In this document: piece by piece, positions 2,311 through 63,209 of the stretch | How positions within the stretch are numbered: position 1 is the first letter of the stretch | Layout of the letters: each line of letters begins with the position of its first letter | From: a phage | Reading direction: 5' to 3' (one strand) | Sequence record: OZ335960.1 | Length of the DNA: 64,000 nt | Translations under genes and position numbers: made by a program | The notes under the pieces: generated by a model | Database searches by the model: none | What the model was told of the DNA's origin: nothing | Seen by the model: the letters and a program-made list of their open reading frames with translations, nothing else

Positions 2311-2337
2311 TTTATTCTCCTTTGTTTGTGTAAGATA

Positions 2338-2366
2338 ATACTATCACAAAGGAACCATACTGTAAA
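2338..2366 (-). promoter_or_regulatory. T4-type early promoter
   Basis: Minus strand GTTTACA, 17 nt, TAGTAT with an A/T-rich upstream region. Confidence 0.55.
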
Positions 2367-2389
2367 CAACTTTGTGCAATCTTTGGAAA

Positions 2390-2415
2390 ATAAAAAAGGA
2401 CTCCCGAAGGAGTCC
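2390..2415 (-). terminator. rho-independent terminator
   Basis: Minus strand GGACUCC-UUCG-GGAGUCC followed by UUUUUUAUUUU. Confidence 0.6.
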
Positions 2416-2420
2416 TCAAC

Positions 2421-2597
2421 TTATGCTTTCTGCTTACCAAAACGAGAAGCATCATCTCGAAGAACCGCACGTGCTCGGCGCATGATCTTCTCAACAGTTT
2501 GATTGATACGAGAGTTCGACCCACGCTTGTAGCCAGCGCGTTTAGAATCACCAACTTTCTTTTCAACTGCTTTCTTTGCTTTAGCTTGTTTTGCCAT
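2421..2597 (-). CDS. small lysine/arginine-rich protein
   Basis: Track ORF 2421-2639 trimmed to internal ATG at 2597 (MAKQAKAKKAVEKK...) with RBS AAGAG upstream; terminator hairpin immediately downstream. Confidence 0.45.
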   Translation of the reverse strand: MAKQAKAKKAVEKKVGDSKRAGYKRGSNSRINQTVEKIMRRARAVLRDDASRFGKQKA

Positions 2598-2992
2598 TAT
2601 AAATTCTCTTTTAAATGAAAATGCAGGACTTATTGGCATTGCCTGCGCAAGCCCTCAAGGGGAACATAGGTTTTGTATATTTACCGACAGGATAACCATA
2701 AACCCGTCAACATACCTTATAGCTCTTATCTGTTGCACACCGTTAGCTTAAAGGTTCCGGGTTCGATTTCTCGAGGATAAGATATATACTGATGGATATA
2801 TAGGCCTTGAGGCGTACTCCCGATTAGCCATCACCTCGGGGTAGCATGCACTTGCCGCTATAAAATAACATTCAAGAGGTACACCGTAAAACTGCCGGGG
2901 TCTTAAAACTATAATGATTCGCAAATCATTAATCAGACAGTTCGACGGCTCCTCGTTTTAACTTCACACTAAGGCAGTGACTCTCCAATAAA

Positions 2993-3241
2993 TTACTTCA
3001 GTGTTACCACAAAGTGACGAACTGCTTTTCGTGCAGCAGAAGCCAGTGGCTTAGCATATTTAAGTTCATCTTTTTCCTGAAGCTCAGCAGCTAATGCAGT
3101 TTGAGCAGGATTCAGATGTTTGAAATAACGCAGGATTTCAAGAGCTTCGGCTTCAACATCAATAGATGCGCCATAGTTTTCGTGACCATTATTCCATGCG
3201 TTTCGTTGCAGTTCAAGAGCGTGTTGTAATTGTTTAATCAT
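2993..3241 (-). CDS. rIII: rIII lysis-inhibition accessory protein
   Basis: 82 aa, position next to gene 31, sequence matches recalled T4 RIII (MIKQLQHALELQRNAWNNGHENYG...). Confidence 0.75.
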   Translation of the reverse strand: MIKQLQHALELQRNAWNNGHENYGASIDVEAEALEILRYFKHLNPAQTALAAELQEKDELKYAKPLASAARKAVRHFVVTLK

Positions 3242-3388
3242 TTAAAAATTCTCGTTAGAGATTAAAACTCGGTAGTCACGTTCTTCTGAATTTCATCTTC
3301 TTTCGACAGATCTCTCAGTTGTAGACTACCACATAGAATTGTTCGGTTAACTTATTATTCCGACACCCAATTCATATTATTATTTATA

Positions 3389-3724
3389 TCACTTATAAAG
3401 ACACGGAATAGCTTTATAGTGACAGGTAACGAATTTTTGTTTAATTTCTTTTGGCTGCTTAAGACCCAGAGCTACAAAAGGATGCGGAACGTTTCGAATT
3501 TGACCAACTGGAAGAGAAGTCAAATCACCAACTTCGCAGAAACCTTCAGGAACATCAGGACCAACGGAGTGAACTACACACAGTTCAGGAACTTCACCTT
3601 GAACACGTTTACCGATAATAAGTCCTGATTCTGTAACTTCTTCATCACCGGCTTGTGCAGGTTCAGAAACTAAAATAACATATTCACCGACAGCACGAAT
3701 TGGTAGCTGTTGTACTTCAGACAT
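3389..3724 (-). CDS. 31: gp31 co-chaperonin (GroES-like) for major capsid protein folding
   Basis: 111 aa, same length as T4 gp31; GroES-like glycine-rich mobile loop; MotA-box middle promoter immediately upstream. Confidence 0.85.
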
Positions 3725-3754
3725 CGTTTTTCCTTTTTGTTAACAGATGAATTA

Positions 3755-3779
3755 ATAATAACAAATAATTCTTAAAGCA
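3755..3779 (-). promoter_or_regulatory. MotA-dependent middle promoter for gene 31
   Basis: Minus strand MotA box TGCTTTA, 12 nt, TATTAT, about 30 nt before the gene 31 RBS. Confidence 0.55.
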
Positions 3780-3780
3780 T

Positions 3781-4089
3781 TTATTTACCAATAAATTGAA
3801 GCAAATGCTCAACTTTCATACCATTAACGGAAATCAATTTGTCAATAGAAAAACCTCGCCATGCACCGAGTTCAACATCAAATACTGGAATCATATCAGT
3901 AGATTCTTTCCGAGCAGATTCAGTCAATTTACCAGTTTGCATGGTTGGCATAAAGTCTGCATCGCGAGTACCTTTCATAGTACGAATAGTACCATCAGAC
4001 TTTTCAAAAACTACATTTGAAATACCCATGGACAATTTAGTTTTCAAAATTTCACGAATTGCTACTTTTTGTTCAGTCGTCAGTTTCAT
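3781..4089 (-). CDS. hypothetical protein (31.1 position)
   Basis: ORF track 102 aa. Confidence 0.5.
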   Translation of the reverse strand: MKLTTEQKVAIREILKTKLSMGISNVVFEKSDGTIRTMKGTRDADFMPTMQTGKLTESARKESTDMIPVFDVELGAWRGFSIDKLISVNGMKVEHLLQFIGK

Positions 4090-5242: not shown

Positions 5243-5475
5243 AGTACGCCATACACCCTTTGTGCTTCAACTAATCCATCAAAATCCAATTTGAGATGTG
5301 TTATTTGGTCACCATCACCTGGATTCACAATTACTAATACTGAACGAGGAGTTTCGGTAATAACGCGAACCGATGTTTCTGGAAATCGTTCAGAAACCTT
5401 ATTTACCAATTCCTGAGCAAATAGTTTAACTTTTTCTTGGAATTCTTTAACAGTAATTGGTTTTTCACTTAGCAT
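5239..5475 (-). CDS. hypothetical protein
   Basis: ORF track 78 aa. Confidence 0.45.
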   Translation of the reverse strand: MLSEKPITVKEFQEKVKLFAQELVNKVSERFPETSVRVITETPRSVLVIVNPGDGDQITHLKLDFDGLVEAQRVYGVL

Positions 5476-5996
5476 GTTGATCCTAGCTCCTTACTTTCAA
5501 CGTTTTTAACTAATTTGACAGAAACTAATTCGGCATCTTGGGTAATCATTACCGGGCCTTCTTTATACTCTTCAAGATATTCTAGAGCTTTCTTTTTAGC
5601 TTCTTCCTTCGTATCAGTTTGAGCATAGATATAAAACATACAACCAGTAATACCTACTACTTTCCACTTAATTTCTTTATCAGTTTTAATTTCAAATTTA
5701 CTGACAGAATCATCTTTTTGAACTTCTTCGAAAAAAGAATATTCTAACATATAAGCAATTGAAAATAACGGGCTAACTTTATAGGATTCGCCCATTACAT
5801 CAACAGCTTTATACCAACAGTCATCAATTTCGCGTTTAATGCTAATAACATTTTTCGCAGGATCTATTTTTACTTTAAATGAATTTTCTCCAATAAACTG
5901 AGCAATTCGTTTATTAGCCCCGCAAGTTTCATTAAAAATATCTTTATATCCAGCTTTAAAGCGATAAACCTTATCTTCTTCAAACCATTCGCTCAT
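5469..5996 (-). CDS. hypothetical protein
   Basis: ORF track 175 aa. Confidence 0.5.
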   Translation of the reverse strand: MSEWFEEDKVYRFKAGYKDIFNETCGANKRIAQFIGENSFKVKIDPAKNVISIKREIDDCWYKAVDVMGESYKVSPLFSIAYMLEYSFFEEVQKDDSVSKFEIKTDKEIKWKVVGITGCMFYIYAQTDTKEEAKKKALEYLEEYKEGPVMITQDAELVSVKLVKNVESKELGSTC

Positions 5997-6537: not shown

Positions 6538-6726
6538 AAGTTTTCCATGGTAAAGGCAGTTTAGTTTTCTTTACTGTTAGTTCAACATCAGGATTCTTTT
6601 CCCTTAATTTAAGACATTCCTCCCAAGCTCTGTTTTCACTAGTGAAAACACAAAATTGCCCATTACTAGTACCAACTAAACCGCTATTTACAATAACAAT
6701 AGCCCAAGTTTCATGATGCAAAGCCA

Positions 6727-6727
<1 letters not shown>
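6530..6727 (-). CDS. hypothetical protein
   Basis: ORF track 65 aa. Confidence 0.4.
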
Positions 6728-7948
<1,221 letters not shown>

Positions 7949-7952
<4 letters not shown>

Positions 7953-8185
7953 CTATTTTCCTCAACCAATGATTGAATATAATCATGCAAGTCTTTAGAT
8001 GCTTTACCCCACTTATTTTGGTATTCATTTTTAAGATTAGCACGAGATTGAGCTAATAAAACATCATTAGTTGGAGGTAAAGATTCTAACCGCTGAATCT
8101 GGCGTCCGTAAATCATTGCAGCCATCTCGGATTCATAAATCAATCCTTTGAGATGTTCAAATTGATGCCATGAAATCATTTGCAT
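7949..8185 (-). CDS. hypothetical protein
   Basis: ORF track 78 aa. Confidence 0.45.
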
Positions 8186-8475
8186 TTATCCTCTTTTAAC
8201 TCTTGGCGATAATAACATATCATAGTTTTCTGATCATGTACATATCGTTTTACATCATTAAGCCAAATACGAAATTCCTGGGAATCTTCGAATGGCATAC
8301 CGACCCAAGCTTTACCATCAATAACTTTAACTTGCCAGGATAGTTTAGCTTCATCATATGACTTTATTTGTACAGGCCAATTAGGATGAACTGTTTCTTT
8401 CTTTACTTCTAGAGGCTTTGTCGAACAACCAACTAGAAGACCAATAGATAATATTACTGCTGATAGTTTAATCAT
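8176..8475 (-). CDS. putative lipoprotein
   Basis: 99 aa; N-terminal signal peptide with lipobox (LLVGCS). Confidence 0.5.
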   Translation of the reverse strand: MIKLSAVILSIGLLVGCSTKPLEVKKETVHPNWPVQIKSYDEAKLSWQVKVIDGKAWVGMPFEDSQEFRIWLNDVKRYVHDQKTMICYYRQELKEDKCK

Positions 8476-8825
8476 TTAGAAAGGTCCTGGATGTCTTCTG
8501 CGAACTTGTTGAAGGAGTTATTGATTTGTTTTTCAACCAATCCTGGCTTATGAGCCACCACATCCGCCTTCTTTGCGTCTTTGCGCAGTTTTTCATTTTC
8601 ACGCTCAATAGCAGCAATTGCCTCACGATTTTTATTATTCATCGCATCAATATAATTATACTGAATTCGCAAATTATTTAATGCTAAAGCGTTTTCATTG
8701 GCCGTTTTTGTAATTTCTACAACAGACGTTTCTAATCTTTCAATTTTATTTTTTAAAATTAAAGAAGTTCCGCCCAATGCAATTACAATTAATAGCAAGC
8801 CTGTTGTCGTATTACTTAATTGCAT
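8472..8825 (-). CDS. membrane-anchored coiled-coil protein
   Basis: 117 aa; hydrophobic N-terminal helix followed by a charged heptad-like region. Confidence 0.45.
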   Translation of the reverse strand: MQLSNTTTGLLLIVIALGGTSLILKNKIERLETSVVEITKTANENALALNNLRIQYNYIDAMNNKNREAIAAIERENEKLRKDAKKADVVAHKPGLVEKQINNSFNKFAEDIQDLSK

Positions 8826-9322
8826 AAAGTTTTAATAACCTCTATAATATCGTCTTGAGAAAGACCGTTAATTAAAATATGATGTTCAGCAGGAGATTTA
8901 GAAATTTTAAAGCATGCCTCAACATCTTCTGCCATATCCGATGCGCTGCGATTTGGATTACTAATTCCAAGACGATGTTTTCCCGTTAAAGGATTAACGA
9001 TGATATAGCATTTACAGTTGTTGATATGAACATTAGGTTGAGTCTGATTAATGAACACATCACAATCATATTTCGCAAGCTGATTTTCTAAAAAGACTTT
9101 CATCTCCTCAACCGCATCAGGAAGCATATCACGGGCTTGCTCAAGACGACGATTTCGATATTCTTTAATGGTCGTTTTCCGCTTGACTTGCTTAGCTAAA
9201 TCTTTCTTAAGATCGGTGATATATCCAACTCGACGATTTCCTTTAAATACAGAAATCCCATCTGTAGTATCACCGTATGCTTCAACGACCATCTCAGTAG
9301 TAATAAGCTGTAAATCCATCAT
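8816..9322 (-). CDS. alc: Alc-like host-transcription inhibitor (positional assignment)
   Basis: 168 aa ORF in the position between the pseT cluster and rnlA where T4 encodes the 167-aa Alc; assigned by length and position only. Confidence 0.5.
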   Translation of the reverse strand: MMDLQLITTEMVVEAYGDTTDGISVFKGNRRVGYITDLKKDLAKQVKRKTTIKEYRNRRLEQARDMLPDAVEEMKVFLENQLAKYDCDVFINQTQPNVHINNCKCYIIVNPLTGKHRLGISNPNRSASDMAEDVEACFKISKSPAEHHILINGLSQDDIIEVIKTLCN

Positions 9323-9383
9323 AAAGTCCTCATGTTATGTCAGTAAGACTACTATAACACAACACGAGGGACTTGTAAACAGC

Positions 9384-10971
<1,588 letters not shown>

Positions 10972-10979
10972 AATAAAAT

Positions 10980-10993
10980 GGGCCTTACGGCCC
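10980..10993 (-). promoter_or_regulatory. GNRA-loop hairpin between a Shine-Dalgarno sequence and the denA start codon (split RBS)
   Basis: Minus strand reads TAA-GGAG-TG-GGGCC-GUAA-GGCCC-AUUUUAUU-AUG; the hairpin would bring AAGGAG to about 9 nt from the AUG. Confidence 0.45.
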
Positions 10994-10998
10994 ACTCC

Positions 10999-12168
10999 TT
11001 AAAAATATTTTTTAAAACTCATCATAACTTTATCATCAACATCATTATCAATCTGTGCTACAAGGTAAGATGAAAGTTCTACTTCTTGTGGCGCGGATTG
11101 AACATTATCAGAATTAAGATATTCACGAATCCAAGGATACGGATGTTTAACCGGAGCATCAGTAATTGGGCATGGAAGACCACACTGTTTCATACGAGAT
11201 ACAGTTAAGTAATCAATAAAGCTCCACATGCTATTTGTATTTAATCCAGGAACATCACCATCTTTAAATAAATGAACTGCCCAGTCTTTTTCTTGGCGGT
11301 TAACTTCCATGAAAATATCAACTGCTTCTTGTTCACACTCTTGGGCGATTTTAACCCATTCATCACCATCAGTGCCAAGTTGAAGTTGACGAATAATATA
11401 TTGGGTGCCTTTAAGGTGAAGCTGCTCATCACGTGCAATGAACTTCATAATCTTGGCATTACCTTCCATGATTTCCATGTTTTTATGGAAGTTAAAGGTA
11501 CACGCGAAAGATACATAAAAACGAATAGCTTCCAATGCGTTGATTACATGAAGGCAAAGATAAAGAGATTTCATTAGTGCTCGTTTAGTACATTCAACAA
11601 CTTTGCCTAACTCTTCTTTGCGAAATCCTTCTGATAAAATTCCTTCATAATCTTCAACCGCATTCTGATATTCACGAGTCTTAACTAGAACATCATCGTA
11701 ATAGCGACCAATAGATTCAGCACGTTTCATAATAGCTTTATCTAATACAATCTCATCAAACACTTTTGACGGATCAGTATAAAGATTTCGCATAATATGA
11801 GTGTATGAACGGCTGTGAATAGTTTCACTAAAAGTCCATGTAGCAACCCATGTATCAAGACTTGGGTCTGAAATTAACGACATAAGTACAGCAGACGGTG
11901 CACGACCCTGAATGCTATCTAGAAGTGATTGATACTTCAGGTTATTAGTAAAAATATCTTGCTGATACTGAGGAAGCTTGTTAAATTGTGCAGCATCCAT
12001 CATCAAGTTTACTTCTTCAGGACGCCAGAAAAATGACAATTGCTTTTCGGTTAAATCTTCAAAAACTTTATGACGTTGAATATCATAACGCGCAATACCA
12101 AGACCTGAACCGAAGAACATAGGTTCTTTTAAAACATCAACTGGATTTGTATTAAAAACTGTGCTCAT
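10999..12168 (-). CDS. nrdB: ribonucleotide reductase beta subunit, uninterrupted (no intron)
   Basis: 389 aa continuous ORF; di-iron/tyrosyl-radical R2 fold motifs; no group I intron as in T4 nrdB. Confidence 0.9.
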   Translation of the reverse strand: MSTVFNTNPVDVLKEPMFFGSGLGIARYDIQRHKVFEDLTEKQLSFFWRPEEVNLMMDAAQFNKLPQYQQDIFTNNLKYQSLLDSIQGRAPSAVLMSLISDPSLDTWVATWTFSETIHSRSYTHIMRNLYTDPSKVFDEIVLDKAIMKRAESIGRYYDDVLVKTREYQNAVEDYEGILSEGFRKEELGKVVECTKRALMKSLYLCLHVINALEAIRFYVSFACTFNFHKNMEIMEGNAKIMKFIARDEQLHLKGTQYIIRQLQLGTDGDEWVKIAQECEQEAVDIFMEVNRQEKDWAVHLFKDGDVPGLNTNSMWSFIDYLTVSRMKQCGLPCPITDAPVKHPYPWIREYLNSDNVQSAPQEVELSSYLVAQIDNDVDDKVMMSFKKYF

Positions 12169-12219
12169 AAATTTTCCGCTTAGTTAATAGATAGTGACTC
12201 GTCCGTGAGTCAAATTATA

Positions 12220-14484
12220 TCATAATTTACAGGATGAACAATCTTCAGCTTTTGGAGTTTCTATTTCATAATCATCAGTACCAGAACCGTCACGGGTATT
12301 ATGATAATAGAAATTTTTTCCGCCAAAATACCAAAAATACAAAAGGTCATCAATCATTATTGACATTGGAACCTTTCCTTTTGGAAAAATCTGCGGGTCA
12401 TAATATGTATTCGCTGAAGCTGATTGACACACCCATTTCAGCATAATAGCTACTTGCGTAAGATAAGGTTTATTGCCTTTCTTAGCTAATTTCCATGTAT
12501 AATCATAGAGGTCTATGTTGTGCTCAATATTGGGCACGACTTGATTAAAGGAGCCCTCTTTTGATTCTTTAACAGAGACTGGTCCACGTGGAGGCTCGAT
12601 ACCGTTTGTACTGTTAGAAACTTGGGAAGATGACTCACATGGCATAAGTGCTGATAATGTGCTATTACGGATGCCAAAGAGCTTAAGGTCTTCCCGCAGC
12701 GACGACCAGTCACAAACGTATTTTGGAGCTGCGATTTGGTCAATCTTTTTATTGTACCAGTCGATAGGTAATTCGCCTCGAGACCAACGAGTGTCTGAAT
12801 AATATTCGCAAGGTCCTTTTTCTTTGGCGAGCTTAATGGATGCTTTAATGAGTCCATACTGTAATCTCTCAAATAGTTCATGTGTTAAATCGTTAGCATC
12901 TTCATAAGAAGCAAAATTACTTGCTAGCCAAGCTGCATAGTTAGTAACACCTACGCCAAGGTTTCGACGTTTTTTAGCTTTTTCTGCTTCAGGAACTGGA
13001 TATCCTTGGTAATCCAAAAGATTATCAAGAGCACGAACTTGGACTTCTGCCAATTCATTAATTTTATCTTGGTCTTGCCAATCGAAGTTATCTAACACAA
13101 ATGCAGATAACGTACACAATCCAATTTCAGCATCAGGACTATTCACATCATTTGTTGGAATAGCAATTTCACAACACAAGTTGCTCTGACGAATAGGTGC
13201 CTTTTCACGAATAAATGGCGTATAGTTATTCGTATTATCAATGAACTGCACATAAATCCTTGCTGTTCCTGAGCGTTCAGTCATGAGCAATTCAAACAGT
13301 TCACGGGCTTTAATACGCTTTTTACGAATATTAGGGTCTTTTTCTGCAGCTTCGTATAATTCACGGAAACGGTCTTGGTCTTTAAAATAAGAATAATAAA
13401 GTTCGCCACCCATTTCATGCGGACTGAACAAAGTAATGTAATCATTCTTTCCGAATCGTTCCATCATTAGGTCATTCAGTTGAACGCCATAATCCATATG
13501 ACGGATACGGTTTTCTTCTACACCTTTGTTATTTTTCAAAACGAGAAGATTTTCAACTTCCAAATGCCAAATAGGATAATAAGCAGTAGCAGCGCCGCCA
13601 CGAATTCCACCCTGTGAACATGATTTAACTGCAGTCTGAAAATGTTTCCAAAAAGGAATAACACCAGTATGACGCACTTCACCCATTCCAATCTTAGAAC
13701 CTTCGGCACGAATCATACCAACGTTAATACCAATTCCAGCGCGTTTGGAGATATATTCAACAATTGAAGCAGAAGCCTTATTGATAGACTTTAATGAATC
13801 ACCTGCCTCAATAACAACGCATGAACTAAACTGCCGAGTTGGAGTACGGCAACCAGCCATAATAGGGGTTGGCAGTGAAATCTGTCGAGTAGATACTGCT
13901 TCATAAAAACGAATAACATGTTTTAATCTATCAACAGGTTCATCTTGATGCAATGCCATTCCAATAGTCATAAATGCAAACTGTGGAGTTTCATAAATTT
14001 GACCAGTGGTTTTATCTTTAACTAGATATTTTTCTTTTAATTGCATCGCCCCGGAATAAGTAAATTCCATATCCCGCTCGTGCTTAATTTTTGATTCTAA
14101 AAATGTAATTTCTTCTGCTGAATATTTTGACAACAATTCAGGGTCGTATTTACCTTCATTTACACAGTAAGAAATATGGTCAATAAATGAACGGGGCTCA
14201 TACTGCCCGTAAACATGCTTACGAAGAGCGAACATTAAACACCGTGCAGCTACATATTGATAATCAGGCTCTTCAACTGAAATAGAATTCGCAGCAGCCT
14301 TAATGACAATAGTCTGAATGTCATCAGTTGTCATTCCATCACGGAGATATGATTTAATATTTTCATATAATTCATAAGGATCTACAGATGTTCCTTCAGC
14401 TGCCCAAGATAAAACTTTAATAATTTTTTGCGGGTCAAAGCTCTGAGAAACACCACTACTTTTGATAACATTAATTAATTGCAT
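12220..14484 (-). CDS. nrdA: ribonucleotide reductase alpha subunit
   Basis: 754 aa; ATP-cone N-terminus, catalytic cysteines, C-terminal CxxC tail. Confidence 0.95.
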   Translation of the reverse strand: MQLINVIKSSGVSQSFDPQKIIKVLSWAAEGTSVDPYELYENIKSYLRDGMTTDDIQTIVIKAAANSISVEEPDYQYVAARCLMFALRKHVYGQYEPRSFIDHISYCVNEGKYDPELLSKYSAEEITFLESKIKHERDMEFTYSGAMQLKEKYLVKDKTTGQIYETPQFAFMTIGMALHQDEPVDRLKHVIRFYEAVSTRQISLPTPIMAGCRTPTRQFSSCVVIEAGDSLKSINKASASIVEYISKRAGIGINVGMIRAEGSKIGMGEVRHTGVIPFWKHFQTAVKSCSQGGIRGGAATAYYPIWHLEVENLLVLKNNKGVEENRIRHMDYGVQLNDLMMERFGKNDYITLFSPHEMGGELYYSYFKDQDRFRELYEAAEKDPNIRKKRIKARELFELLMTERSGTARIYVQFIDNTNNYTPFIREKAPIRQSNLCCEIAIPTNDVNSPDAEIGLCTLSAFVLDNFDWQDQDKINELAEVQVRALDNLLDYQGYPVPEAEKAKKRRNLGVGVTNYAAWLASNFASYEDANDLTHELFERLQYGLIKASIKLAKEKGPCEYYSDTRWSRGELPIDWYNKKIDQIAAPKYVCDWSSLREDLKLFGIRNSTLSALMPCESSSQVSNSTNGIEPPRGPVSVKESKEGSFNQVVPNIEHNIDLYDYTWKLAKKGNKPYLTQVAIMLKWVCQSASANTYYDPQIFPKGKVPMSIMIDDLLYFWYFGGKNFYYHNTRDGSGTDDYEIETPKAEDCSSCKL

Positions 14485-14801
14485 AAGTCCTCAACTTGAA
14501 AATCGTCTTTAAACAATCGGTTAACTATATGAGCTATTATATCACCATGACACGGCTTTGGTTTACATGTGCATCCTAGCCTCATTCCACGTAAAGGCTC
14601 TAAATGTGCTTTAGTTATTTCTCCGGATTTAATTCGACGTATAAAATCTTTTTTGAATAATTCAATGGCAGCCTCCCGGCTGCCAGCATCTTTACCGACG
14701 TAATTTCCCCAAAATGTACCACGGTGAATATTAACATCAAAGTCGGATTTATATTTATTCACTACCTGGCATAGACGGCCCGCGCGGTGATAATTCGTCA
14801 T
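14475..14801 (-). CDS. hypothetical protein (nrdA.1 position) with C-x-C ... PCHGD motif
   Basis: ORF track 108 aa. Confidence 0.5.
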
Positions 14802-15030
14802 ATTGTTTTTCCGTTAAAACAGTAATATCATAGTAACAATCAGAAGAAGTTTTAACTGTGGAAATTTTATTATCAAAATACTCACGAGTCATTTTATGAG
14901 TATAATACTTTTTACCATAAATGATAATAGGTTGTTCTGGTCCTGGAACTTCTAACTCGCTTGGATTAGGAAGTGTAAAAAGAACGATACCAGAAGTATC
15001 CTTAAATCGTAAAATCATATATCCTCTCAA
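14755..15030 (-). CDS. hypothetical protein (nrdA.2 position)
   Basis: ORF track 91 aa; overlaps the next ORF start, so the true start may be internal. Confidence 0.4.
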
Positions 15031-15041
15031 TTAAATTAAAA

Positions 15042-15902
15042 TTACACCGCCATCTTTCCTTTCAAAACACCGTGGGACTGATAATCTTTGAGAACGAAAT
15101 CCCGTGCTGTCATATATTCAGTTAACCAATACATTTGAGTTTCAGTATCGCATTGACTGAATCCATTAGGCCAATTAATACTGAGTTTGCATAGATCCAT
15201 AGGAGTTCTATTTAATATCTCTTTGCATTGCTCAATATGGTTAGAATAAATGTGTGTATTACCACCAGAGAATACCAAATCGCCCGGAACTAGTTCACAC
15301 ATGTCAGCAACAATATGTAAAAGAGCAGCATAACTCGCGATGTTAAATGGAAGACCGAGGAAAACATCTACCGAACGTTGATACCATTGGAGGTCAAGGT
15401 ATCCGTTACGCACATTAAACTGATAGAACATATGACAAGGTGGTAATGCCATCTGCTTGAGTTCAGCTGGATTCCATGCCGACACAATTTGACGTCTATC
15501 ATTGGGAAATGTTTTAATACGATTAACAACTTCTACAATTTGATCTACACCACCAAAATCACGCCATTGTTTTCCGTAAATTGGACCAAGTTCACCGCTA
15601 TGATAACCTAGGTCTTTGGCCTGGTTTTCGTAGTTTTCATCCCAAATTGTTTTTCCTGCAATTAAAGATCCATGAGTACGTTGACGTAAATCATTTACGT
15701 TAGTACTTCCTGATAAGAACCACAATAACTCAGAAATACATGCATTCCAGGCGAGCTTCTTAGTTGTTACTGCAGGAAAACCTTTAGTTAAATCCCAGCG
15801 TAATTTAGTACCGAACAAAGCAATTGTTCCTGTGCCTGTTCGGTCATCGGTTTCATAGCCGTTTTCAAAAATGTCTTTAATTAAATCTTGGTATTGTTTC
15901 AT
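15042..15902 (-). CDS. td: thymidylate synthase, uninterrupted (no intron, no I-TevI)
   Basis: 286 aa continuous ORF with the ThyA active-site region (PPCH); T4 td is split by a group I intron, which is absent here. Confidence 0.95.
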   Translation of the reverse strand: MKQYQDLIKDIFENGYETDDRTGTGTIALFGTKLRWDLTKGFPAVTTKKLAWNACISELLWFLSGSTNVNDLRQRTHGSLIAGKTIWDENYENQAKDLGYHSGELGPIYGKQWRDFGGVDQIVEVVNRIKTFPNDRRQIVSAWNPAELKQMALPPCHMFYQFNVRNGYLDLQWYQRSVDVFLGLPFNIASYAALLHIVADMCELVPGDLVFSGGNTHIYSNHIEQCKEILNRTPMDLCKLSINWPNGFSQCDTETQMYWLTEYMTARDFVLKDYQSHGVLKGKMAV

Positions 15903-15946
15903 TTAGTACCTTATATAAATTATAATACATTTTATGAAGCTAATAA

Positions 15947-16294
15947 TCAATACGGTTTAGCATCAAATTTTCTTTCAATTTCAGGCGTAAAATATAATTC
16001 TTTACCACGCTTGGAAAAGCGACCAATAATATGATAATTATTCTCATCAAACGTGATATTGCCGATATCCATAGCTTTCAACCAAATATCGATATTTCTG
16101 TCAAGCTTTATATCAAAATTCCAATACGGAGAATTATTACCAAAAATACTACAAGCGGATTCAGTGAAACAACTGCTATAAATTTTGTCTTTAGGAACTA
16201 CTAATTGATAGACTCCTTTAATAAACTGAGGACCTTGCCATTTTGGTTGTTTCGCGTCTTTTTCTAATAGAATAGGATAATAATTAAAATTCAT
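15947..16294 (-). CDS. hypothetical protein inserted between frd and td
   Basis: Track ORF 119 aa from a GTG; likely ATG at 16294 (116 aa); occupies a junction where, as recalled, T4 frd and td directly overlap. Confidence 0.5.
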   Translation of the reverse strand: MNFNYYPILLEKDAKQPKWQGPQFIKGVYQLVVPKDKIYSSCFTESACSIFGNNSPYWNFDIKLDRNIDIWLKAMDIGNITFDENNYHIIGRFSKRGKELYFTPEIERKFDAKPY

Positions 16295-16314
16295 ATTTTC
16301 CGCCACGTGTTATT

Positions 16315-17141
<827 letters not shown>

Positions 17142-17149
17142 TTTATCTC

Positions 17150-17485
17150 CTAATATAAAGGATCGGGAACATATCCACTAGCTTTAATCATTTTAATTAA
17201 TGTTAACATTCCTTTATTAACTGCTAGTGAAATTTCATCAAAAACTTCATCACTAAAAAGTTCTAACACGCCCTTCTGAACTTTTAGTTTACAGCCAACA
17301 ATTTCGTCATCGCCTATAGTAAATTCGTTTCCGCCAATTCCACCGAAAAACTTAATTACGCCAGTTAACTGTCTTCCACGAGAATATGGGTCGTGCGATA
17401 AAGTAATATGAGTCACCCCAGGTACAGTTTTAAATTGGCAGCGGATGTTTACTTGAGCAATTCCAGTTACATGAATGTCAGACAT
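17150..17485 (-). CDS. hypothetical protein
   Basis: ORF track 111 aa. Confidence 0.45.
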   Translation of the reverse strand: MSDIHVTGIAQVNIRCQFKTVPGVTHITLSHDPYSRGRQLTGVIKFFGGIGGNEFTIGDDEIVGCKLKVQKGVLELFSDEVFDEISLAVNKGMLTLIKMIKASGYVPDPLY

Positions 17486-17495
17486 AATATTTTCC

Positions 17496-17738
17496 TCAAA
17501 CAGTCTTTTTCACAATTTTCCAATCAGCTTTAAACTGTTCAACATCAGAATGGTAAATCCAGAATCCTGCGCTTTCTCCATCCTCGTAAAGAGGGCATCC
17601 ATCACATTCATCTTCCCATCCCATGTCACGCAAAAGATGTTCAGCTTTTTCAACAAGTTCAGAATCTTTACCGATGATATTAAAATACCATTTACCTCTA
17701 ACTTCTGAATCTTTAATACTCTGGCGTTGTAATCTCAT
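17496..17738 (-). CDS. hypothetical protein
   Basis: ORF track 80 aa; early promoter at 17848-17876 upstream. Confidence 0.45.
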   Translation of the reverse strand: MRLQRQSIKDSEVRGKWYFNIIGKDSELVEKAEHLLRDMGWEDECDGCPLYEDGESAGFWIYHSDVEQFKADWKIVKKTV

Positions 17739-18535: not shown

Positions 18536-18578
18536 ATTATTTTCCTCTTTAATCATCAGCAGTATTGCCGATAGTCGT

Positions 18579-18607
18579 ATAGTACCACAGTTCTTATAGT
18601 ATGTAAA
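18579..18607 (-). promoter_or_regulatory. T4-type early promoter (conserved cassette copy)
   Basis: Minus strand TTTACA, 17 nt, TACTAT within the conserved ...GTTTACA...CTGTGGTACTATAC... cassette. Confidence 0.6.
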
Positions 18608-18631
18608 CAACTTTGTGAAAAAATTTTTGAA

Positions 18632-18658
18632 ATAAAAAAGGGGACCTCTAGGGTCCCC
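18632..18658 (-). terminator. rho-independent terminator downstream of gene 32
   Basis: Minus strand GGGGACC-CUAGA-GGUCCCC followed by a U-run. Confidence 0.65.
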
Positions 18659-19589: not shown

Positions 19590-19656
19590 TTTTATTTCCT
19601 TTTTAATTTAATTAACAGTTGGTGCTATGACGATGTATGACCTCATAGCTGGTCAG
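19590..19656 (-). promoter_or_regulatory. gene 32 translational operator (5' pseudoknot plus unstructured A/U-rich leader)
   Basis: Leader contains GACCAGCUAUGAGGUCAUACAUCGUCAUAGCAC followed by AACUGUUAAUUAAAUUAAAAAGGAAAUAAAA before the AUG; this is the known gp32 autoregulation site. Confidence 0.6.
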
Positions 19657-19662
19657 TGAGAT

Positions 19663-19687
19663 AATTATAATCTATTTATAATAAGCA
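19663..19687 (-). promoter_or_regulatory. overlapping late (TATAAATA) and MotA-box middle promoter elements for gene 32
   Basis: Minus strand TGCTTAT-TATAAATAGATT-ATAATT. Confidence 0.5.
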
Positions 19688-19688
19688 A

Positions 19689-26987: not shown

Positions 26988-27010
26988 CTATTAAAATAAA
27001 GGGGCATACA

Positions 27011-27667
27011 ATGGCTGATTTAAAAGTAGGTTCAACAACTGGAGGCTCTGTCATTTGGCATCAAGGAAATTTTCCATTGAATCCAGCCGGTGACGATGTA
27101 CTCTATAAATCATTTAAAATATATTCAGAATATAATAAACCACAAGCTGCTGATAACGATTTCGTTTCTAAAGCTAATGGTGGTACGTATTTAAATAAAG
27201 TAATTTTTAATAAAGGAATGACTGTTCCTGGTGCAGGGTCAGGTGACAATGGTATTTTTGCTGGTCCTGGTGATAATGCCACGTATGATACTACAAATAT
27301 GGATATTGTTTCATGGTATGGTATTGGTTTTAAATCATCGCAGGGTTCAGCAGGTAGAACTGTAGTAATTAACACACGAAATGGAGATATTAGCTCAAAG
27401 GGTGTAATTGAAGCATCACAAATACGCGCAACTTCATTATCTCCAGTAAATAATTATGACCTTACGCGGAAAGATTATGTCGATGGAGCAATAAATATTG
27501 TTACAGCAAACGCAAACTCTAGGGTATTACGCTCTGGAGACACTATGACAGGTAACTTAACCGCGCCAAACCTTTTTTCACAGAATCCTGCATCTCAACC
27601 CTCACATGTTCCACGATTTGATCAAATTGTTATTAAGGATTCTGTTCAAGATTTCGGCTATTATTAA
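27011..27667 (+). CDS. 36: long tail fibre distal connector gp36
   Basis: 218 aa; late promoter at 26980 and terminator hairpin of gene 35 upstream. Confidence 0.9.
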   Translation: MADLKVGSTTGGSVIWHQGNFPLNPAGDDVLYKSFKIYSEYNKPQAADNDFVSKANGGTYLNKVIFNKGMTVPGAGSGDNGIFAGPGDNATYDTTNMDIVSWYGIGFKSSQGSAGRTVVINTRNGDISSKGVIEASQIRATSLSPVNNYDLTRKDYVDGAINIVTANANSRVLRSGDTMTGNLTAPNLFSQNPASQPSHVPRFDQIVIKDSVQDFGYY

Positions 27668-27675: not shown

Positions 27676-29125
27676 ATGGCTACTTTAAAACAAATACAAT
27701 TTAAAAGAAGCAAAACCGCAGGAGCACGTCCTGCCGCTTCAGTATTAGCCGAAGGTGAATTGGCTATAAACTTAAAAGACCGCGTACTTTTTACTAAAGA
27801 CGACCAAGGAAATATCATTGATCTTGGTTTTGCTAAGGGCGGTAGTATTGACGGGAATGTTATTCATATAGGAAACTATAATCAAACTGGTGATTATACT
27901 TTAAATGGCACCTTCACTCAGACGGGTAATTTTAATTTAATCGGTATTGCTCGAGTAACTCGCGATATTATTGCCGCCGGGCAGATTATGACCGAAGGCG
28001 GAGAACTTATTACAAAAAGTTCAGGTACATCACATGTTCGTTTTTTCGATAGCAATAGCCGCGAGCGCGGAATCATTTATTCTCCTGCTAATGATGGATT
28101 AACTACACAAGTACTTAATATCAGGGTTCAAGACTACGCCGCTGGTAGCGAAAGCACCTATGCATTTTCAGGCAATGGCCTATTTACTTCACCTGAAGTA
28201 TCAGCATGGAAATCTATGTCAACTCCTCAGATTTTGACCGATAAAGTTATTACAGATGGGAAGAAGACAGGCGATTATGACATCTATTCATTAGCAAATA
28301 ACACTCCATTGGCAGAAAGCGAAACGGCTATTAACCACCTCCGTGTTATGCGAAATGCCGTAGGATCTGGTATATTCCATGAAGTTAAAGATAACGACGG
28401 GATAACCTGGTACGCCGGTGACGGATTAGATGCCTATCTTTGGTCGTTTACCTGGTCCGGTGGATTGAAAGCAGGCCATTCTATTTCTATAGGTCTTCCG
28501 GGCGGCTCTAAAGGATATTCTGAATTAGGGACTGCTTCGATTGCTCTTGGTGATAATGATACTTGGTGATAATGATACTGGTTTAGTCCATGGCGGTGAT
28601 GGCCGAATCAATATGGTTGCCAATGGTATACATATTGCAAACTGGGGCGCAGGCTATCAATCTCATCCTGGGCTTTGGGATTCAACCGGTGCTTTTTGGA
28701 CAGAAGTTGGAAGAGCTATCGTTTCTCATGGGCATCTCGTTCAGGCAAATGATAGTTATTCAACGTTTGTCCGTGATGTTTATGTCCGTTCTGATATTCG
28801 CGTTAAAAAAGACCTCGTTAAATTTGAAAATGCTTCTCAGAAGCTTTCTAAAATTAACGGTTACACTTATATGCAGAAGCGAGGCCTAGATGGAGAAGGT
28901 AATCAGAAATGGGAACCTAACGCTGGTTTAATTGCTCAAGAAGTTCAAGCTATTTTACCAGAATTAGTTGAAGGCGACCCTGATGGCGAAGCTTTACTTC
29001 GTTTGAACTATAACGGTGTAATTGGTTTAAATACAGCTGCAATCAATGAGCATACCGCAGAAATTGCAGAACTTAAATCAGAAATCGAAGAACTTAAAGC
29101 ATTAGTTAAATCGTTGTTAAAATAA
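27676..29125 (+). pseudogene. 37: long tail fibre distal subunit gp37, frameshifted by a 16-bp tandem duplication; C-terminal intramolecular-chaperone-like domain
   Basis: N-terminal frame 27676-28569 (297 aa, MATLKQIQFKRSK... conserved gp37 N-terminus) ends at TGA created by the duplication; the +1 frame continues LGDNDTGLVHGG... to 29125 and ends with an SDIRVKKD...GLIAQEVQ... domain. Confidence 0.7.
28547..28578 (+). repeat. perfect 16-bp tandem duplication (TTGGTGATAATGATAC x2) inside gene 37
   Basis: Copy 1 at 28547-28562, copy 2 at 28563-28578; creates in-frame TGA at 28567-28569. Confidence 0.9.
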
Positions 29126-32731: not shown

Positions 32732-33367
32732 TCACAGTTCAGATGCTACGGTGATTACTGCTTCAATGTTTTCTGCCGAGCGTTTAATGTCAAGATACAC
32801 ATTACCGTTTTTAGCGATTTTACATGACATTCCGATATCAGTAAATTTCTGAATATAGTGTTCCATCATTTTGTATCCAAAAATTCGCATATTTCCGTTG
32901 TTGTTAATTTCAAAATTGCGAATTCCGTGAGTACGTTTTTCTAAAATAGCAAGATAGTTACTGCGGTAAGTTTCAACCTTTTTAAGAACAAATCCATTTT
33001 CATCTAAAAGTTTTAACATGAAGTCTTTATCTTCTTCCATATCGGAAGTAATCTCACGAGCTTTACGAGTTGCTCGTTTTTTCAGTAGTTCAGGAGCATT
33101 TTCCTGTGCGTATAAAGTTGCCGCATTTGAAATAATATCCTGAGCTTCACCAGTAATGATTAATCCATCACCGGATTTCTCCACCAGGCCTTTTTTAATC
33201 AATACCCCAATATTACTATTAACTACTGCATTACCTAAATCTGGATGCACCTCACGAACTTCTGCAGCTGTAATGAAATCTTTCTTAGCAATGGTAATTA
33301 AAATTGCAGCAGTTTTTTCATTCAGAACATCGTTAGAAGCTTTGATGATGTAAGTTACTTTAGACAT
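32732..33367 (-). CDS. motA: MotA middle-transcription activator
   Basis: 211 aa; early promoter copy immediately upstream; matches recalled T4 MotA. Confidence 0.9.
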   Translation of the reverse strand: MSKVTYIIKASNDVLNEKTAAILITIAKKDFITAAEVREVHPDLGNAVVNSNIGVLIKKGLVEKSGDGLIITGEAQDIISNAATLYAQENAPELLKKRATRKAREITSDMEEDKDFMLKLLDENGFVLKKVETYRSNYLAILEKRTHGIRNFEINNNGNMRIFGYKMMEHYIQKFTDIGMSCKIAKNGNVYLDIKRSAENIEAVITVASEL

Positions 33368-33408
33368 TTTCTAATCTCCGTAATTCTGTATCAGTAGTTG
33401 ATAGTTGT

Positions 33409-33437
33409 ATAGTACCACAGTATGCTTTGGTTGTAAA
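33409..33437 (-). promoter_or_regulatory. T4-type early promoter for motA (conserved cassette copy)
   Basis: Conserved cassette ...GGTTTACA...CTGTGGTACTATACAACTATCAACTACTGATAC... Confidence 0.6.
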
Positions 33438-33463
33438 CCGTTTTGTGAAAAAATTTTTGAAAT

Positions 33464-33489
33464 AAAAAAGGGAGAGCCTCAGCTCTCCC
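33464..33489 (-). terminator. rho-independent terminator downstream of gene 52
   Basis: Minus strand GGGAGAGC-UGAG-GCUCUCCC followed by a U-run. Confidence 0.6.
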
Positions 33490-36681: not shown

Positions 36682-36709
36682 TTTTCTGTTCCTCCGTAGT
36701 TGATAGTTG

Positions 36710-36738
36710 TATAGTACCACAGAGGAACAGTCTTGTAA
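36710..36738 (-). promoter_or_regulatory. T4-type early promoter (conserved cassette copy)
   Basis: Same about 45-bp conserved cassette, TTTACA-17-TACTAT. Confidence 0.6.
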
Positions 36739-36957: not shown

Positions 36958-37164
36958 TCAATAATCTGCTAAAAGATCGACGATTGCATCACGAAGACAC
37001 TTATTCGCAATACGTTTAAGAGCAATTTCAGTTTCTGGAGCATTTTGAATAATCATTGAATTCAATTCAGCCTCAGCAAACTGAAGTTCTTTAACTAATT
37101 CAGCTTTATATTTTCCTTGCCCTTTCTTAGCTTTTGCTCGTTTTAATTCAGCTGTAGTAAACAT
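36958..37164 (-). CDS. hypothetical protein
   Basis: Track ORF (TTG start) trimmed to ATG 37164 with GGAGAAT RBS; early promoter copy at 37199-37227. Confidence 0.45.
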   Translation of the reverse strand: MFTTAELKRAKAKKGQGKYKAELVKELQFAEAELNSMIIQNAPETEIALKRIANKCLRDAIVDLLADY

Positions 37165-37198
37165 TTTATTCTCCAAATCCGTATCAGTTGATAGTTGT

Positions 37199-37227
37199 AT
37201 AGTACCACAGTCCTTGTGGTATGTAAA
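37199..37227 (-). promoter_or_regulatory. T4-type early promoter (conserved cassette copy)
   Basis: Same conserved cassette, TTTACA-17-TACTAT. Confidence 0.6.
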
Positions 37228-37245
37228 CCGTTTTGTGAAAATTTT

Positions 37246-37803
37246 TTAAATGGAAAGATACCATCCGTTGTAGTTGCTTTTTCTTACAACCTTACGAAGG
37301 TCTTCTCTATCACCGATGAACTTCGGAGTGTACTGGATGACACCTGGGTGAATTTCTTTAGTGTTGAATATAATTATACAGTCAGCGACCTGATGATTCA
37401 GAATGGGCCCTAGATTTATTCCAGAACCATATGGATACTCTCCGCTGCATCCTGTTGTTACAGAAATCCAACGTGAGTCAGTTTGATGTGTCTTAACTTC
37501 TACACGAAGCCCGCAATATCTTGGATGCGCCAATACATCCCATGCGTATGTATACGGGTCATTAACATCCTCTTGGCCTTTGTTAACATACCCGCTTAGC
37601 CAATCTGCTACAAAAAACTCTGCGTACACCGCGATACGACATCTTTCAATAACTTCTGCTTTATCCTGATTTGGATTTTGTTTTAAAGAGTATCTTGCTG
37701 TATCAGCAATTTTGACCTTCATTTCACTAGTCAAGTCACTGTTCGATAGGGTAAATGTCGGAATCTGAAATAGTCTCTGTAAACCCGGATTCGTTTTCTG
37801 CAT
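37246..37803 (-). CDS. denB: endonuclease IV
   Basis: 185 aa, matches recalled T4 DenB. Confidence 0.85.
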   Translation of the reverse strand: MQKTNPGLQRLFQIPTFTLSNSDLTSEMKVKIADTARYSLKQNPNQDKAEVIERCRIAVYAEFFVADWLSGYVNKGQEDVNDPYTYAWDVLAHPRYCGLRVEVKTHQTDSRWISVTTGCSGEYPYGSGINLGPILNHQVADCIIIFNTKEIHPGVIQYTPKFIGDREDLRKVVRKSNYNGWYLSI

Positions 37804-41722: not shown

Positions 41723-43540
41723 CTACTGGCTCATCCATTCTTTACGAAGGTCAGCATTATCTCCCATGAGCATTTCAAAAAGCTCTTTCCAGTTCTCAGG
41801 AAGTTTAACAACATCATATACCGGGTTTTGAATCATCTCACGATATTCAGATTTTTCCAAAGAGCCAAGTCCCTTAATATAACGGATGCTATGTTTAGGT
41901 AGAGCATCTTTGGCACTCTCATATTCAGCGACTGTATAAAACCATTCTTGTTTTTTACCGACCTGGGCGATGATTACAGGAGTTTTGACGAAACGAATTC
42001 TTCCTTGTTCAAACAGTTCTGGCCAATTACTAAAAAATCCGAGCAGAGAAGGATAAATGCTTCCTAGACCATCGTGGTCAGCATCGGTCATAATAGCAAT
42101 ATTATGATAATTCAAGTTTTCAGCTTTTTCACCAAGAACTAATCCAGTGATTGCGCAAATATCAAATAGTTCTTTGTTTTTAAGCATATCAGCATATGAC
42201 ATACCCCAGCTATTAAGAACTTTACCACGCAATGGATAACCACCATGAAGTTCTTTATCACGAACATCAATAAGATATCCGATAGCAGAATCACCCTCAG
42301 TCAAGAAAAGAGTAGTATCAGCATCTTTACCGCAAAGATTCGCTTTAATGTGTTTATGAACCTTAGCTTTAGAAGCCTTTTTAGCTGCTTTAGTTTCTGC
42401 TGCCTTTTCTGCCGCCAATTTACGAGCCAAGGCAGCTTCAATAATTGGCATTAAAATTGCTTCATTATTTAAAATAGCACGTGAAATCTTTTTAGCATCA
42501 AGCTGAATATGACTACGAATTTCACCAAATGGAGAAGTCAAACGCTCTTTAGTCTGAGAATCAAATCGCATGTTTTTCATATCACGAACAAACATAACGA
42601 TAGTCAAACATTCTTTAACCCGTGCTTTAGTTACATCAATTTTAAACTTGCGTTTGATTTGTGGAATAAGGTCTTCACAAATATCATCCATAACGCAGTC
42701 AATGTGATGGCCACCATTCTTAGTATGAATGTTATTGACGTATGTTAATTGACGAAAACCATCCGGTGAACGACCGACTGCAATAGAACAGTTTTCCTGT
42801 TCTTGAACGATAGCATGCTCATCATATTGGCGTGCATATTTCTTAAAATTACCCTGAACCTTTTTACCATTAAAGGTAAATTGAATATCAGGATAAACTA
42901 CTGCAAGTGTCTGGAGACGATCCAGTGTAATGTCAAGATAAACTTGAGATAGCTCATTAGTTTCAAATGACATAAAATCAGGAATGAAAGTAACACGAGT
43001 TCCTTTCCATTTTCCAGGAATAGTTTCCCATGATTTATTTTCCATGCCATTTGAACAACGAACTACAATATTATTTTGACCGTCGCCAGTTTCACCGACA
43101 AACATCACAGAAAAAATGTTAGTTAAACTAGAACCAACACCGTTCATACCGCCAGTGACGCGTTCTTTATCATCACCAAAGTTACCACCTGCTTTTGGAA
43201 TAGTCCATGCAGCAACAGGACCAGGAATTTCTTCACCAGTAGGTGTTTTAACCATCGCTTGCGGAATACCACGACCGTTATCTTCAACTGTTACTTGATT
43301 GTTTTTGATAGTAACATTAATTTTATTCGCGAATTTAAACTTAGTACGAATACCTTCATCTACTGAGTTATCGATAATTTCATCAATAAGCTTAACAAGA
43401 CCAGGTACATACTGAACACTTTCCCATTTACCAAACAGAAAGCGCTCATGCATTTCATTAGCAGAAGAACCAATGTACATGCCGCTACGCTTTTTGATAT
43501 GTTCAATATCGCTCAGAATTTTAATTTCATTCTTAATCAT
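41723..43540 (-). CDS. 39: DNA topoisomerase II large subunit gp39, unsplit (covers T4 genes 39 and 60)
   Basis: Track ORF starts at GTG; ATG 43540 with GAGGA RBS gives 605 aa; GHKL ATPase N-terminus, TOPRIM C-terminus; the C-terminal 120 aa match recalled T4 gp60 without the bypass segment. Confidence 0.9.
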   Translation of the reverse strand: MIKNEIKILSDIEHIKKRSGMYIGSSANEMHERFLFGKWESVQYVPGLVKLIDEIIDNSVDEGIRTKFKFANKINVTIKNNQVTVEDNGRGIPQAMVKTPTGEEIPGPVAAWTIPKAGGNFGDDKERVTGGMNGVGSSLTNIFSVMFVGETGDGQNNIVVRCSNGMENKSWETIPGKWKGTRVTFIPDFMSFETNELSQVYLDITLDRLQTLAVVYPDIQFTFNGKKVQGNFKKYARQYDEHAIVQEQENCSIAVGRSPDGFRQLTYVNNIHTKNGGHHIDCVMDDICEDLIPQIKRKFKIDVTKARVKECLTIVMFVRDMKNMRFDSQTKERLTSPFGEIRSHIQLDAKKISRAILNNEAILMPIIEAALARKLAAEKAAETKAAKKASKAKVHKHIKANLCGKDADTTLFLTEGDSAIGYLIDVRDKELHGGYPLRGKVLNSWGMSYADMLKNKELFDICAITGLVLGEKAENLNYHNIAIMTDADHDGLGSIYPSLLGFFSNWPELFEQGRIRFVKTPVIIAQVGKKQEWFYTVAEYESAKDALPKHSIRYIKGLGSLEKSEYREMIQNPVYDVVKLPENWKELFEMLMGDNADLRKEWMSQ

Positions 43541-43609: not shown

Positions 43610-43882
43610 TTATTTAAAACGGATAGTCGAATCCTTGAAGAATAGACCAGAACATACGGTTCCTTCTACTTTCTGCCCGGTAGGTCCAATAGCACGAAAT
43701 CCAGTATGTTGGAAATCATTTTCAGAGCAACCGAACCAATTGTATCCAGTGATTTCAATATTAGTAAAACCGCTTGAAGACAAAACTTTGGTTGCATTAT
43801 CAGCATCAGTACATCCTGCTAAAGACACTGCTAATACTAATGCCGCGATAGAACGATTAACATATTTCATAATTTCACTCAA
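43610..43882 (-). CDS. putative lipoprotein
   Basis: ORF track 90 aa; signal peptide with lipobox (LAGCTD); start may be the internal ATG 43870. Confidence 0.5.
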   Translation of the reverse strand: MSEIMKYVNRSIAALVLAVSLAGCTDADNATKVLSSSGFTNIEITGYNWFGCSENDFQHTGFRAIGPTGQKVEGTVCSGLFFKDSTIRFK

Positions 43883-44246
43883 ATTTAATGGCTTGAAGGA
43901 GACTAATAATTCTTAAACGGCTTCTTTCATCTTTAACCGTAAAAGAAAGAGGGTCGCCAGATTTCATAGTGATAGTGCATTCAAAACTAAAATCTTCAGG
44001 AACTTCTTCGAAGAAGTCAAATTCTTCATCATATATTAGAACATTACTCTGAAAACTGTGAAGAATTTTTCCGTCATTTCCAGATGCTGTACTAATCATT
44101 GTAACATTATTACCTTTCATATCTTCAACGATAAATTCGCTTGTAGATATTACGGCATTAATAGAACCATTCCTATAAATAGAAGAAAGCAGATATTTCT
44201 TTTCTTCACCTTCACGAATGCGATATTTCTTACCGATTTTAAACAT
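43875..44246 (-). CDS. hypothetical protein
   Basis: Track ORF (GTG at 44252) trimmed to ATG 44246. Confidence 0.45.
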   Translation of the reverse strand: MFKIGKKYRIREGEEKKYLLSSIYRNGSINAVISTSEFIVEDMKGNNVTMISTASGNDGKILHSFQSNVLIYDEEFDFFEEVPEDFSFECTITMKSGDPLSFTVKDERSRLRIISLLQAIKFE

Positions 44247-44248
44247 AA

Positions 44249-45357: not shown

Positions 45358-45442
45358 ATTGTTTTCTGTATCAGTAGTTGATATTGATATAGTACCATAA
45401 TCAACTACTGATGTATATAGTTTTATGAAAAAATTTTAAACT

Positions 45443-54703: not shown

Positions 54704-54733
54704 GTAATTCTCCTTTTATTTAAATTACATGAC

Positions 54734-63196: not shown

Positions 63197-63209
63197 TAGA
63201 TTTATTCTA

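Follow-up and report, generated by a model that had tools for sequence, protein, structure and literature searches.

Insert-free nrdB, td and gene 39 as recipients of homing elements have been textbook biology of the T-even phages since the late 1980s. In T4, nrdB and td are interrupted by group I introns with I-TevIII and I-TevI, respectively, and gene 39 is separated from gene 60 by a cassette that includes mobA and a 50-nt translational bypass. T4, whose curated set of homing endonucleases numbers exactly 15, has been called “an oddity” (PMC2988022). MobE nicks nrdB of insert-free phages such as T2, at a site mapped to nt 122–126 of the T2 gene, and repair copies the neighbouring DNA, so that the nrdB intron homes in trans (PMC2790892). 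Similarly, MobA is described as nicking and inserting in T2 (Bonocora 2011, as cited in bioRxiv 10.1101/2022.08.31.505936). Here we describe the corresponding loci in a 64,000-nucleotide stretch of phage DNA (sequence record OZ335960.1; referred to as the window and numbered from its first letter), in which nrdB, td and gene 39 are all uninterrupted.

The window is a segment of a Tequatrovirus (T4-like phage). It is collinear with T4 127944–168903 followed by 1–27987, and extends from gene 30.2/30.3 through nrdB, td, gene 32, the tail-fibre genes, rII, gene 39, dda and uvsX to the 3´ end of gene 43. It very likely derives from an ordinary Tequatrovirus in which the genes for nucleotide metabolism and replication are in an uninvaded, T2-type state, with empty sites that would act as recipients in homing.

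Uninterrupted nrdB, td and gene 39

The insert-free state can be read directly from the sequence. nrdB, encoding the beta subunit of class Ia ribonucleotide reductase, is a continuous open reading frame (ORF) of 389 aa at 10999–12168 (minus strand), and its product matches Ribonuc_red_sm (PF00268) over its full length in Pfam. The gene is 91.9% identical in nucleotide sequence to that of T2 and 89.2% to that of T4 after splicing, with a 5´ part that is only 83% identical to T4. By blastn, 11501/11502 (minus strand) corresponds exactly to the junction of T4 138457/139056, and the intervening T4 138458–139055, a 598-nt group I intron with a defective I-TevIII, has no counterpart. Upstream of nrdB, nrdA (12220–14484, minus strand) encodes 754 aa, equal in length to T4 NrdA, is free of inteins or other inserts, and is 96.5% identical to T2 at the nucleotide level and 99.5% at the amino acid level.

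td, encoding thymidylate synthase, is likewise a continuous ORF of 286 aa (15042–15902, minus strand), and its product covers the complete Thymidylat_synt model (PF00303, positions 1–266 of 266). The empty intron site is at 15353/15354 (minus strand), where blastn gives an exact junction corresponding to T4 143546/144564; T4 143547–144563, the group I intron of ~1016 nt with I-TevI, is without counterpart. The allele is strongly divergent: td of T4 and td of T2 are 96% identical, but the gene in the window has only 79% nucleotide and ~81% amino acid identity to either of them. The final third of the gene (nt 661–840) is the part most divergent from T4 and T2.

Introns of T-even phages pose a particular problem for covariance-model searches. 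The gathering threshold of Intron_gpI in Rfam is 50 bits, and the td and nrdB introns of T4 score 40.3 and 35.7, respectively, so a default Rfam scan cannot certify a T-even gene as intron-free. A negative result at this threshold was consequently dropped as evidence, the same scan missing both T4 introns. We relied instead on a permissive scan with RF00028 that was validated on T4, where it recovers the introns of td (E=9e-8) and nrdB (E=2e-6). It gave no match at E≤1 over the 64 kb, nor at E≤10 over 10500–17500. Taken together with the exact exon–exon junctions, this excludes introns and sizeable remnants. The original prediction, made from the sequence alone, had claimed that nrdB (389 aa) and td (286 aa) are continuous, and had proposed a covariance-model scan and an alignment with T4 and T2 as checks. 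The ORFs, the Pfam domains and the blastn junctions confirm continuity, the validated RF00028 scan is negative, and the alignment has clean junctions with no intron or endonuclease remnant in nrdB, td or gene 39.

Gene 39, encoding the large subunit of topoisomerase II, is unsplit and specifies 605 aa from its ATG (41723–43540, minus strand; the ORF lister starts it one codon upstream, at a GTG at 43543), and the product carries GHKL, gyrB, Toprim and TOPRIM_C domains in Pfam. Residues 1–473 correspond to residues 1–473 of T4 gp39 at 98.3% identity, and residues 472–605 to residues 27–160 of gp60 at 95.5%. Across the bypass position the codons run uninterrupted as GAT GGT CTA GGA AGC, as opposed to GAT GGA, the 50-nt gap, and TTA GGT TCT in T4. 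The T4 take-off codon GGA is thus GGT in the window, and the gap is absent. A segment of 64 nt (~65 bp by blastn spacing) of ordinary coding sequence at 42059–42122 (minus strand) stands where T4 has a 1117-bp cassette made up of the C-terminal extension of gp39, mobA, 60.1, the N-terminal extension of gp60 and the 50-nt bypass. T4 2794–3910 has no counterpart in the window by blastn, and MobA and gp60.1 have no match there by tblastn. This arrangement agrees with a description of the MobA element in which “55-75 nt” are “deleted” (bioRxiv 10.1101/2022.08.31.505936). The earlier claim of a single 605-aa ORF that includes the part encoded by gene 60 is borne out by this collinearity and by the missing gap.

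The absence of inserts extends beyond these three genes. None of the seven mobile insertions that T4 has in the syntenic range is present: the nrdB intron with I-TevIII, nrdB.1 with mobE, the td intron with I-TevI, segG, the 60.1/mobA/50-nt bypass unit, segF and segA. In the blastn comparison with T4, each leaves just a short spacer. The spacer between nrdA and nrdB is an empty 51 bp (12169–12219, minus strand) at the position where T4 holds nrdB.1 and mobE, and where phage bov9_1 has a gene for a 243-aa MobE-like HNH protein. Between gene 32 and gene 59 (19590–19688, minus strand), the segG site is empty and T4 147919–148541 is missing, as is also the case in T2. Between soc and gene 56 (54704–54775, minus strand), the segF site is empty and T4 15611–16306 is missing. 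The region following uvsX (60579–61504, minus strand) consists of a spacer and a gene for a 282-aa beta-glucosyl-HMC-alpha-glucosyltransferase (HMC, hydroxymethylcytosine), where T4 has segA and beta-gt.

The original prediction further held that the only nuclease of these families in the 64 kb is the native GIY-YIG endonuclease II, and on this point four kinds of search agree. denA, encoding endonuclease II, lies at 10561–10995 (minus strand), and its product is 99.3% identical to T4 DenA and matches the GIY-YIG family PF01541 (E=2e-6; 28.5 bits against a cutoff of 22.6). It is the sole GIY-YIG protein in the window and a nuclease for degradation of host DNA rather than a homing endonuclease. 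When all 15 T4 homing endonucleases were compared with the window by tblastn, the best E was 0.13, as against 1.6e-96 for the DenA control. Local hidden Markov models (HMMs) for GIY-YIG and Mob-HNH, run with filters off on all 706 six-frame segments (35 aa or longer), recovered DenA only (E=0.04), and the best match in the window to the HNH model had E=0.23. In T4, the same models recovered nine of nine GIY-YIG proteins (1e-25 to 1e-42) and five of five mob genes, and the MobE-like gene of bov9_1 served as an independent control (4e-37). A GIY-YIG regular expression gave DenA as its single match in the window. Pfam revealed no endonuclease domain in any six-frame segment (at least 35 aa) overlapping DNA without a T4 counterpart, and PHROGs revealed no endonuclease among the window-specific ORFs.

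Seven window-specific ORFs were considered as novel or degenerate endonucleases and rejected (5469–5996, 7632–7952, 15947–16306, 16896–17485, 43875–44252, 46017–46559 and 48276–48536). In Pfam and PHROGs they fall into families that are of unknown function, goF/FRD2-like or motB-like. One of them, a 119-aa ORF between td and frd (15947–16306, minus strand), has no Pfam match and belongs to PHROG 1928, of unknown function; it is not an endonuclease, is absent from T4, and has a homologue in T2 at 138742–139089. Five of the small ORFs (5469–5996, 7632–7952, 16896–17485, 43875–44252 and 48276–48536, all minus strand) are without a T4 counterpart and carry no nuclease domain. Two of these five, of 175 and 125 aa, fall in PHROGs 3710 and 622, which are related to each other and show weak similarity of the goF/FRD2 type, suggesting a paralogous family dispersed over the early region. 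A further pair of ORFs that could be taken for a split DNA polymerase or an insert (62648–63217 and 63210–63965) is in fact imm.1 (DUF5481) and the C-terminal part of gp43, which is intact and leaves the window.

The empty sites as candidate homing recipients

In a phage with this organization, nrdB, td and gene 39 would be translated directly as single polypeptides, without RNA splicing or ribosomal bypass. The intergenic positions of the free-standing T4 seg and mob genes are short empty spacers. Upon co-infection with a carrier of the elements, such as T4, the empty sites would be the recipient alleles. The outcomes of homing considered below are inferred from published experiments with T2.

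The case is clearest for nrdB and gene 39. By alignment to T2, the counterpart of the MobE nick site (T2 nrdB nt 122–126) is found at 12043–12047 (minus strand). Within nt 91–160 of nrdB, 69 of 70 positions are identical to T2, with no difference at nt 122–126, and T4 differs at many positions. Since this region matches the T2 gene that is nicked experimentally, the nrdB locus looks susceptible to MobE, which would nick near nt 122–126, and repair would then bring in mobE and, with it, the nrdB intron, which is otherwise immobile. I-TevIII of T4 is defective (T4 annotation; PMC1865063), so the intron cannot home alone and needs MobE in trans. For gene 39, the product is 99.7% identical to T2 gp39 and the junction region is identical at 126 of 130 nt (four differences). 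Because MobA is reported to nick and insert in T2, this near-identity makes gene 39 a probable target for MobA, and repair of the nick would copy the mobA/bypass cassette. The original prediction had called the loci naive targets for intron homing. This is supported for nrdB with respect to MobE and for gene 39 with respect to MobA, where the likeness to T2 is close, but it needs amendment in that the nrdB intron does not home by itself.

One alternative is that the loci were once occupied and that the elements were later lost precisely, e.g. through recombination with insert-free alleles, so that the sites would be recovered ones and not sites that had always escaped invasion. A life cycle of gain, degeneration and loss has been discussed for homing endonucleases (PMC2988022), and degenerate elements are found in relatives, as exemplified by the defective I-TevIII of T4 and by partial matches to the td intron in some phages. 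The unusually divergent flanks, with 79% identity for td and 83% to T4 for the 5´ part of nrdB, could also reflect past gene conversion. On the other hand, the junctions are clean and none of the seven elements has left a remnant. A locus never invaded and one from which the element was precisely lost are inseparable by sequence alone, and we regard a history of occupation and loss as unlikely.

The case is less clear for td. The I-TevI cleavage motif CAACG is kept at 15376–15380 (minus strand), at its native spacing upstream of the intron site, and I-TevI would probably cut here, 23–25 nt upstream of the insertion site. Cleavage of this allele is plausible: C1 and G5 of the motif are the critical positions for I-TevI, and the enzyme is known, qualitatively, to be notably tolerant of sequence (PMC5009752). 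No observation speaks against the description of the sequence itself; what weighs against the inferred homing concerns this gene. Across positions –45 to +25 of the td insertion site there are 11 synonymous differences from T4, of which five fall among the ~21 positions of the primary I-TevI binding region. With these substitutions and 79% identity overall, susceptibility of td to I-TevI is uncertain. For the ORFs with T4 homologues, the negative result for homing endonucleases rests on the curated T4 set of 15 and on the six-frame HMM and tblastn searches, without individual Pfam scans.

The same substitutions raise the possibility that the td allele is refractory to I-TevI rather than naive, in that synonymous changes over the recognition site would block binding and hence homing. 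If so, the td locus would be immune. The allele is found at ≥94% identity in 26 records (including ADUt, ime09, Shfl2, CrRp10 and G50), and all 26 are intron-free, compared to ~197 records of other alleles with the intron. However, homing co-converts the flanking exons, such that an invaded allele would no longer be alike and a count of 0 in 26 is expected regardless, and the 26 records are closely related and not independent. As co-conversion and kinship keep this count from separating resistance from naivety, it was rejected as evidence of resistance to I-TevI. In addition, the critical CAACG is intact at the correct spacing, I-TevI tolerates sequence change, and the exon-2 half-site (CTTCCATTTAA) is the same as in T2. 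A refractory td allele is thus quite improbable, and the stronger proposal that selection against intron invasion shaped such a variant, based on the recognition-region substitutions being all synonymous and the intron never being seen in the allele, is very doubtful.

It is extremely improbable that the absences are an assembly artefact with inserts collapsed or skipped: although an apparent mis-join in gene 37 of the same window indicates that the assembly is not flawless, the junctions preserve the reading frame and yield conserved proteins of full length, the same layout is found in more than 20 independently sequenced genomes (97–99% identity) and in T2, and no repeats that could collapse flank the sites. 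The uninvaded, T2-type state remains our preferred reading of the window. For annotation, its value is that neither splicing nor bypass has to be modelled.

Other features of the window

Gene 37, encoding the distal subunit of the long tail fibre (27676–29125, plus strand), is broken into two ORFs that lie in different frames, 27676–28569 (297 aa) and 28541–29125, the second of which bears the Peptidase_S74 chaperone domain. Compared to its best match, gene 37 of Ec_MI-02 (900 aa), 1253 nt are missing, which is not a multiple of three. At the junction (28547–28578), both copies of a 16-nt repeat are present in tandem (GGTGATAATGATACT/TGGTGATAATGATACTGG) and create a TGA stop. The break looks more like a mis-joined contig or a collapsed repeat than a product of recombination, because a genuine crossover between the repeats would have kept a single copy and the reading frame. 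If the break were real, the phage would be without functional long tail fibres.

dam is absent between gene 56 and gene 61 (55334–55355), where it is present in T4 (16846–17625) and T2 (15202–15981), and T4 Dam has no match in the window by tblastn at E≤1. The T4 gene 61.2 is missing as well (56769/56770). A sequence of ~75–105 bp recurs in the same orientation and at 78–97% identity in six intergenic regions (18570–18642, 33341–33480, 36693–36722, 37158–37251, 45364–45437 and 63034–63112), and has counterparts at equivalent intergenic positions in T4 (146792–146909, 163596–163707, 167008–167108 and 27007–27100). Finally, a sub-threshold Rfam match to Atu_C8, a small RNA of Rhizobiales, is seen at 2382–2465 (minus strand; 31.4 bits against a gathering threshold of 50, E=0.024). 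It sits inside an ORF at 2312–2566 (minus strand) homologous to the T4 30.8–30.9 region, and is probably due to chance.

Comparison with T2, T4 and other Tequatroviruses

The frequency of the elements was estimated in a phage collection of 50,697 records, of which ~500–560 have Tequatrovirus-level identity to the nrd–td region. A 400-bp junction probe for counting intron-free alleles was abandoned as ambiguous, since partial matches to the divergent td allele are uninterpretable, and the records that carry elements were counted instead. At ≥80% coverage, 197 records carry the td intron, T6 among them; the nrdB intron occurs in 118 records and the mobA/bypass cassette in 41–43 records; a contiguous gene 39 (≥95% identity) is found in ~490 records. 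The insert-free state is therefore the majority or default state among sequenced Tequatroviruses, and T4 is the exception. By these counts, the intron-poor state is not distinctive of this phage.

In the nrd–td region (10500–16400), the window is 97.4–98.1% identical to ADUt, ime09, Shfl2, teqskov and SA20RB. These share the gene order and the td allele (98.5–99.5%), and ADUt, ime09 and Shfl2, among others, are organized in the same way as the window, but none reaches 99% over the full window, and no record in the collection does so. The best relative varies by segment (CrRp10, ECp13 and ADUt), and such shifting best matches are the usual mosaicism of Tequatroviruses. Two phages that are ~96% identical in the nrd–td region and carry the intron-free td allele at 98.3% differ in their element content: vb_EcoM_bov9_1 (bov9_1; MT884006) has the MobE-like HNH gene and G50 (MK327942) has the mobA/bypass cassette. 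Together with the td intron of T6, they show that element content does not track relatedness. The set of introns and endonucleases in a T-even phage does not mark a clade, a reminder that it cannot serve to place such phages phylogenetically.

These considerations also bear on the placement of the phage in a T2-like branch by the original prediction. The part that stands is gene content of T2 type, namely the gp38 adhesin (PF05268, E=2e-66) and the beta-glucosyl-HMC-alpha-glucosyltransferase (60656–61504, minus strand, 282 aa; PHROG 842, E=7e-89; Pfam TAGT) that replaces T4 beta-gt. The presence of the latter enzyme, of T2/T6 type, implies a T2/T6-like modification of hydroxymethylcytosine of gentiobiosyl type. 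A phylogenetic branch does not follow, the content being no phylogenetic marker and the window being equidistant from the two phages, with 94.0% identity to T4 (NC_000866) across 56.7 kb and 94.1% to T2 (AP018813; AY310907) across 57.9 kb. T2 is not among the best matches for the window.

Compared to T4, the window has a collinear backbone and homologous exons. The differences are the lack of all seven T4 insertions and the fusion of gene 39 and gene 60 in the window. Compared to T2, the overall identity of 94.1% is no nearer than that to T4, td is only 79% identical, and T2 has dam and a gp37 of 1341 aa; in the window, dam is missing and gene 37 is truncated. The likeness is in organization: both have an uninterrupted nrdB, a td of 861 bp and an unsplit gene 39 (1818 bp, 605 aa), lack mobE, segG, segF and segA, carry the extra ORF between td and frd, and share the gp38 adhesin and the beta-alpha-glucosyltransferase. 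T2 aligns with 6694–17151 of the window in one high-scoring segment pair without gaps. The insert-free form of nrdB, td and gene 39 seen here is already known, and has been demonstrated experimentally in T2.

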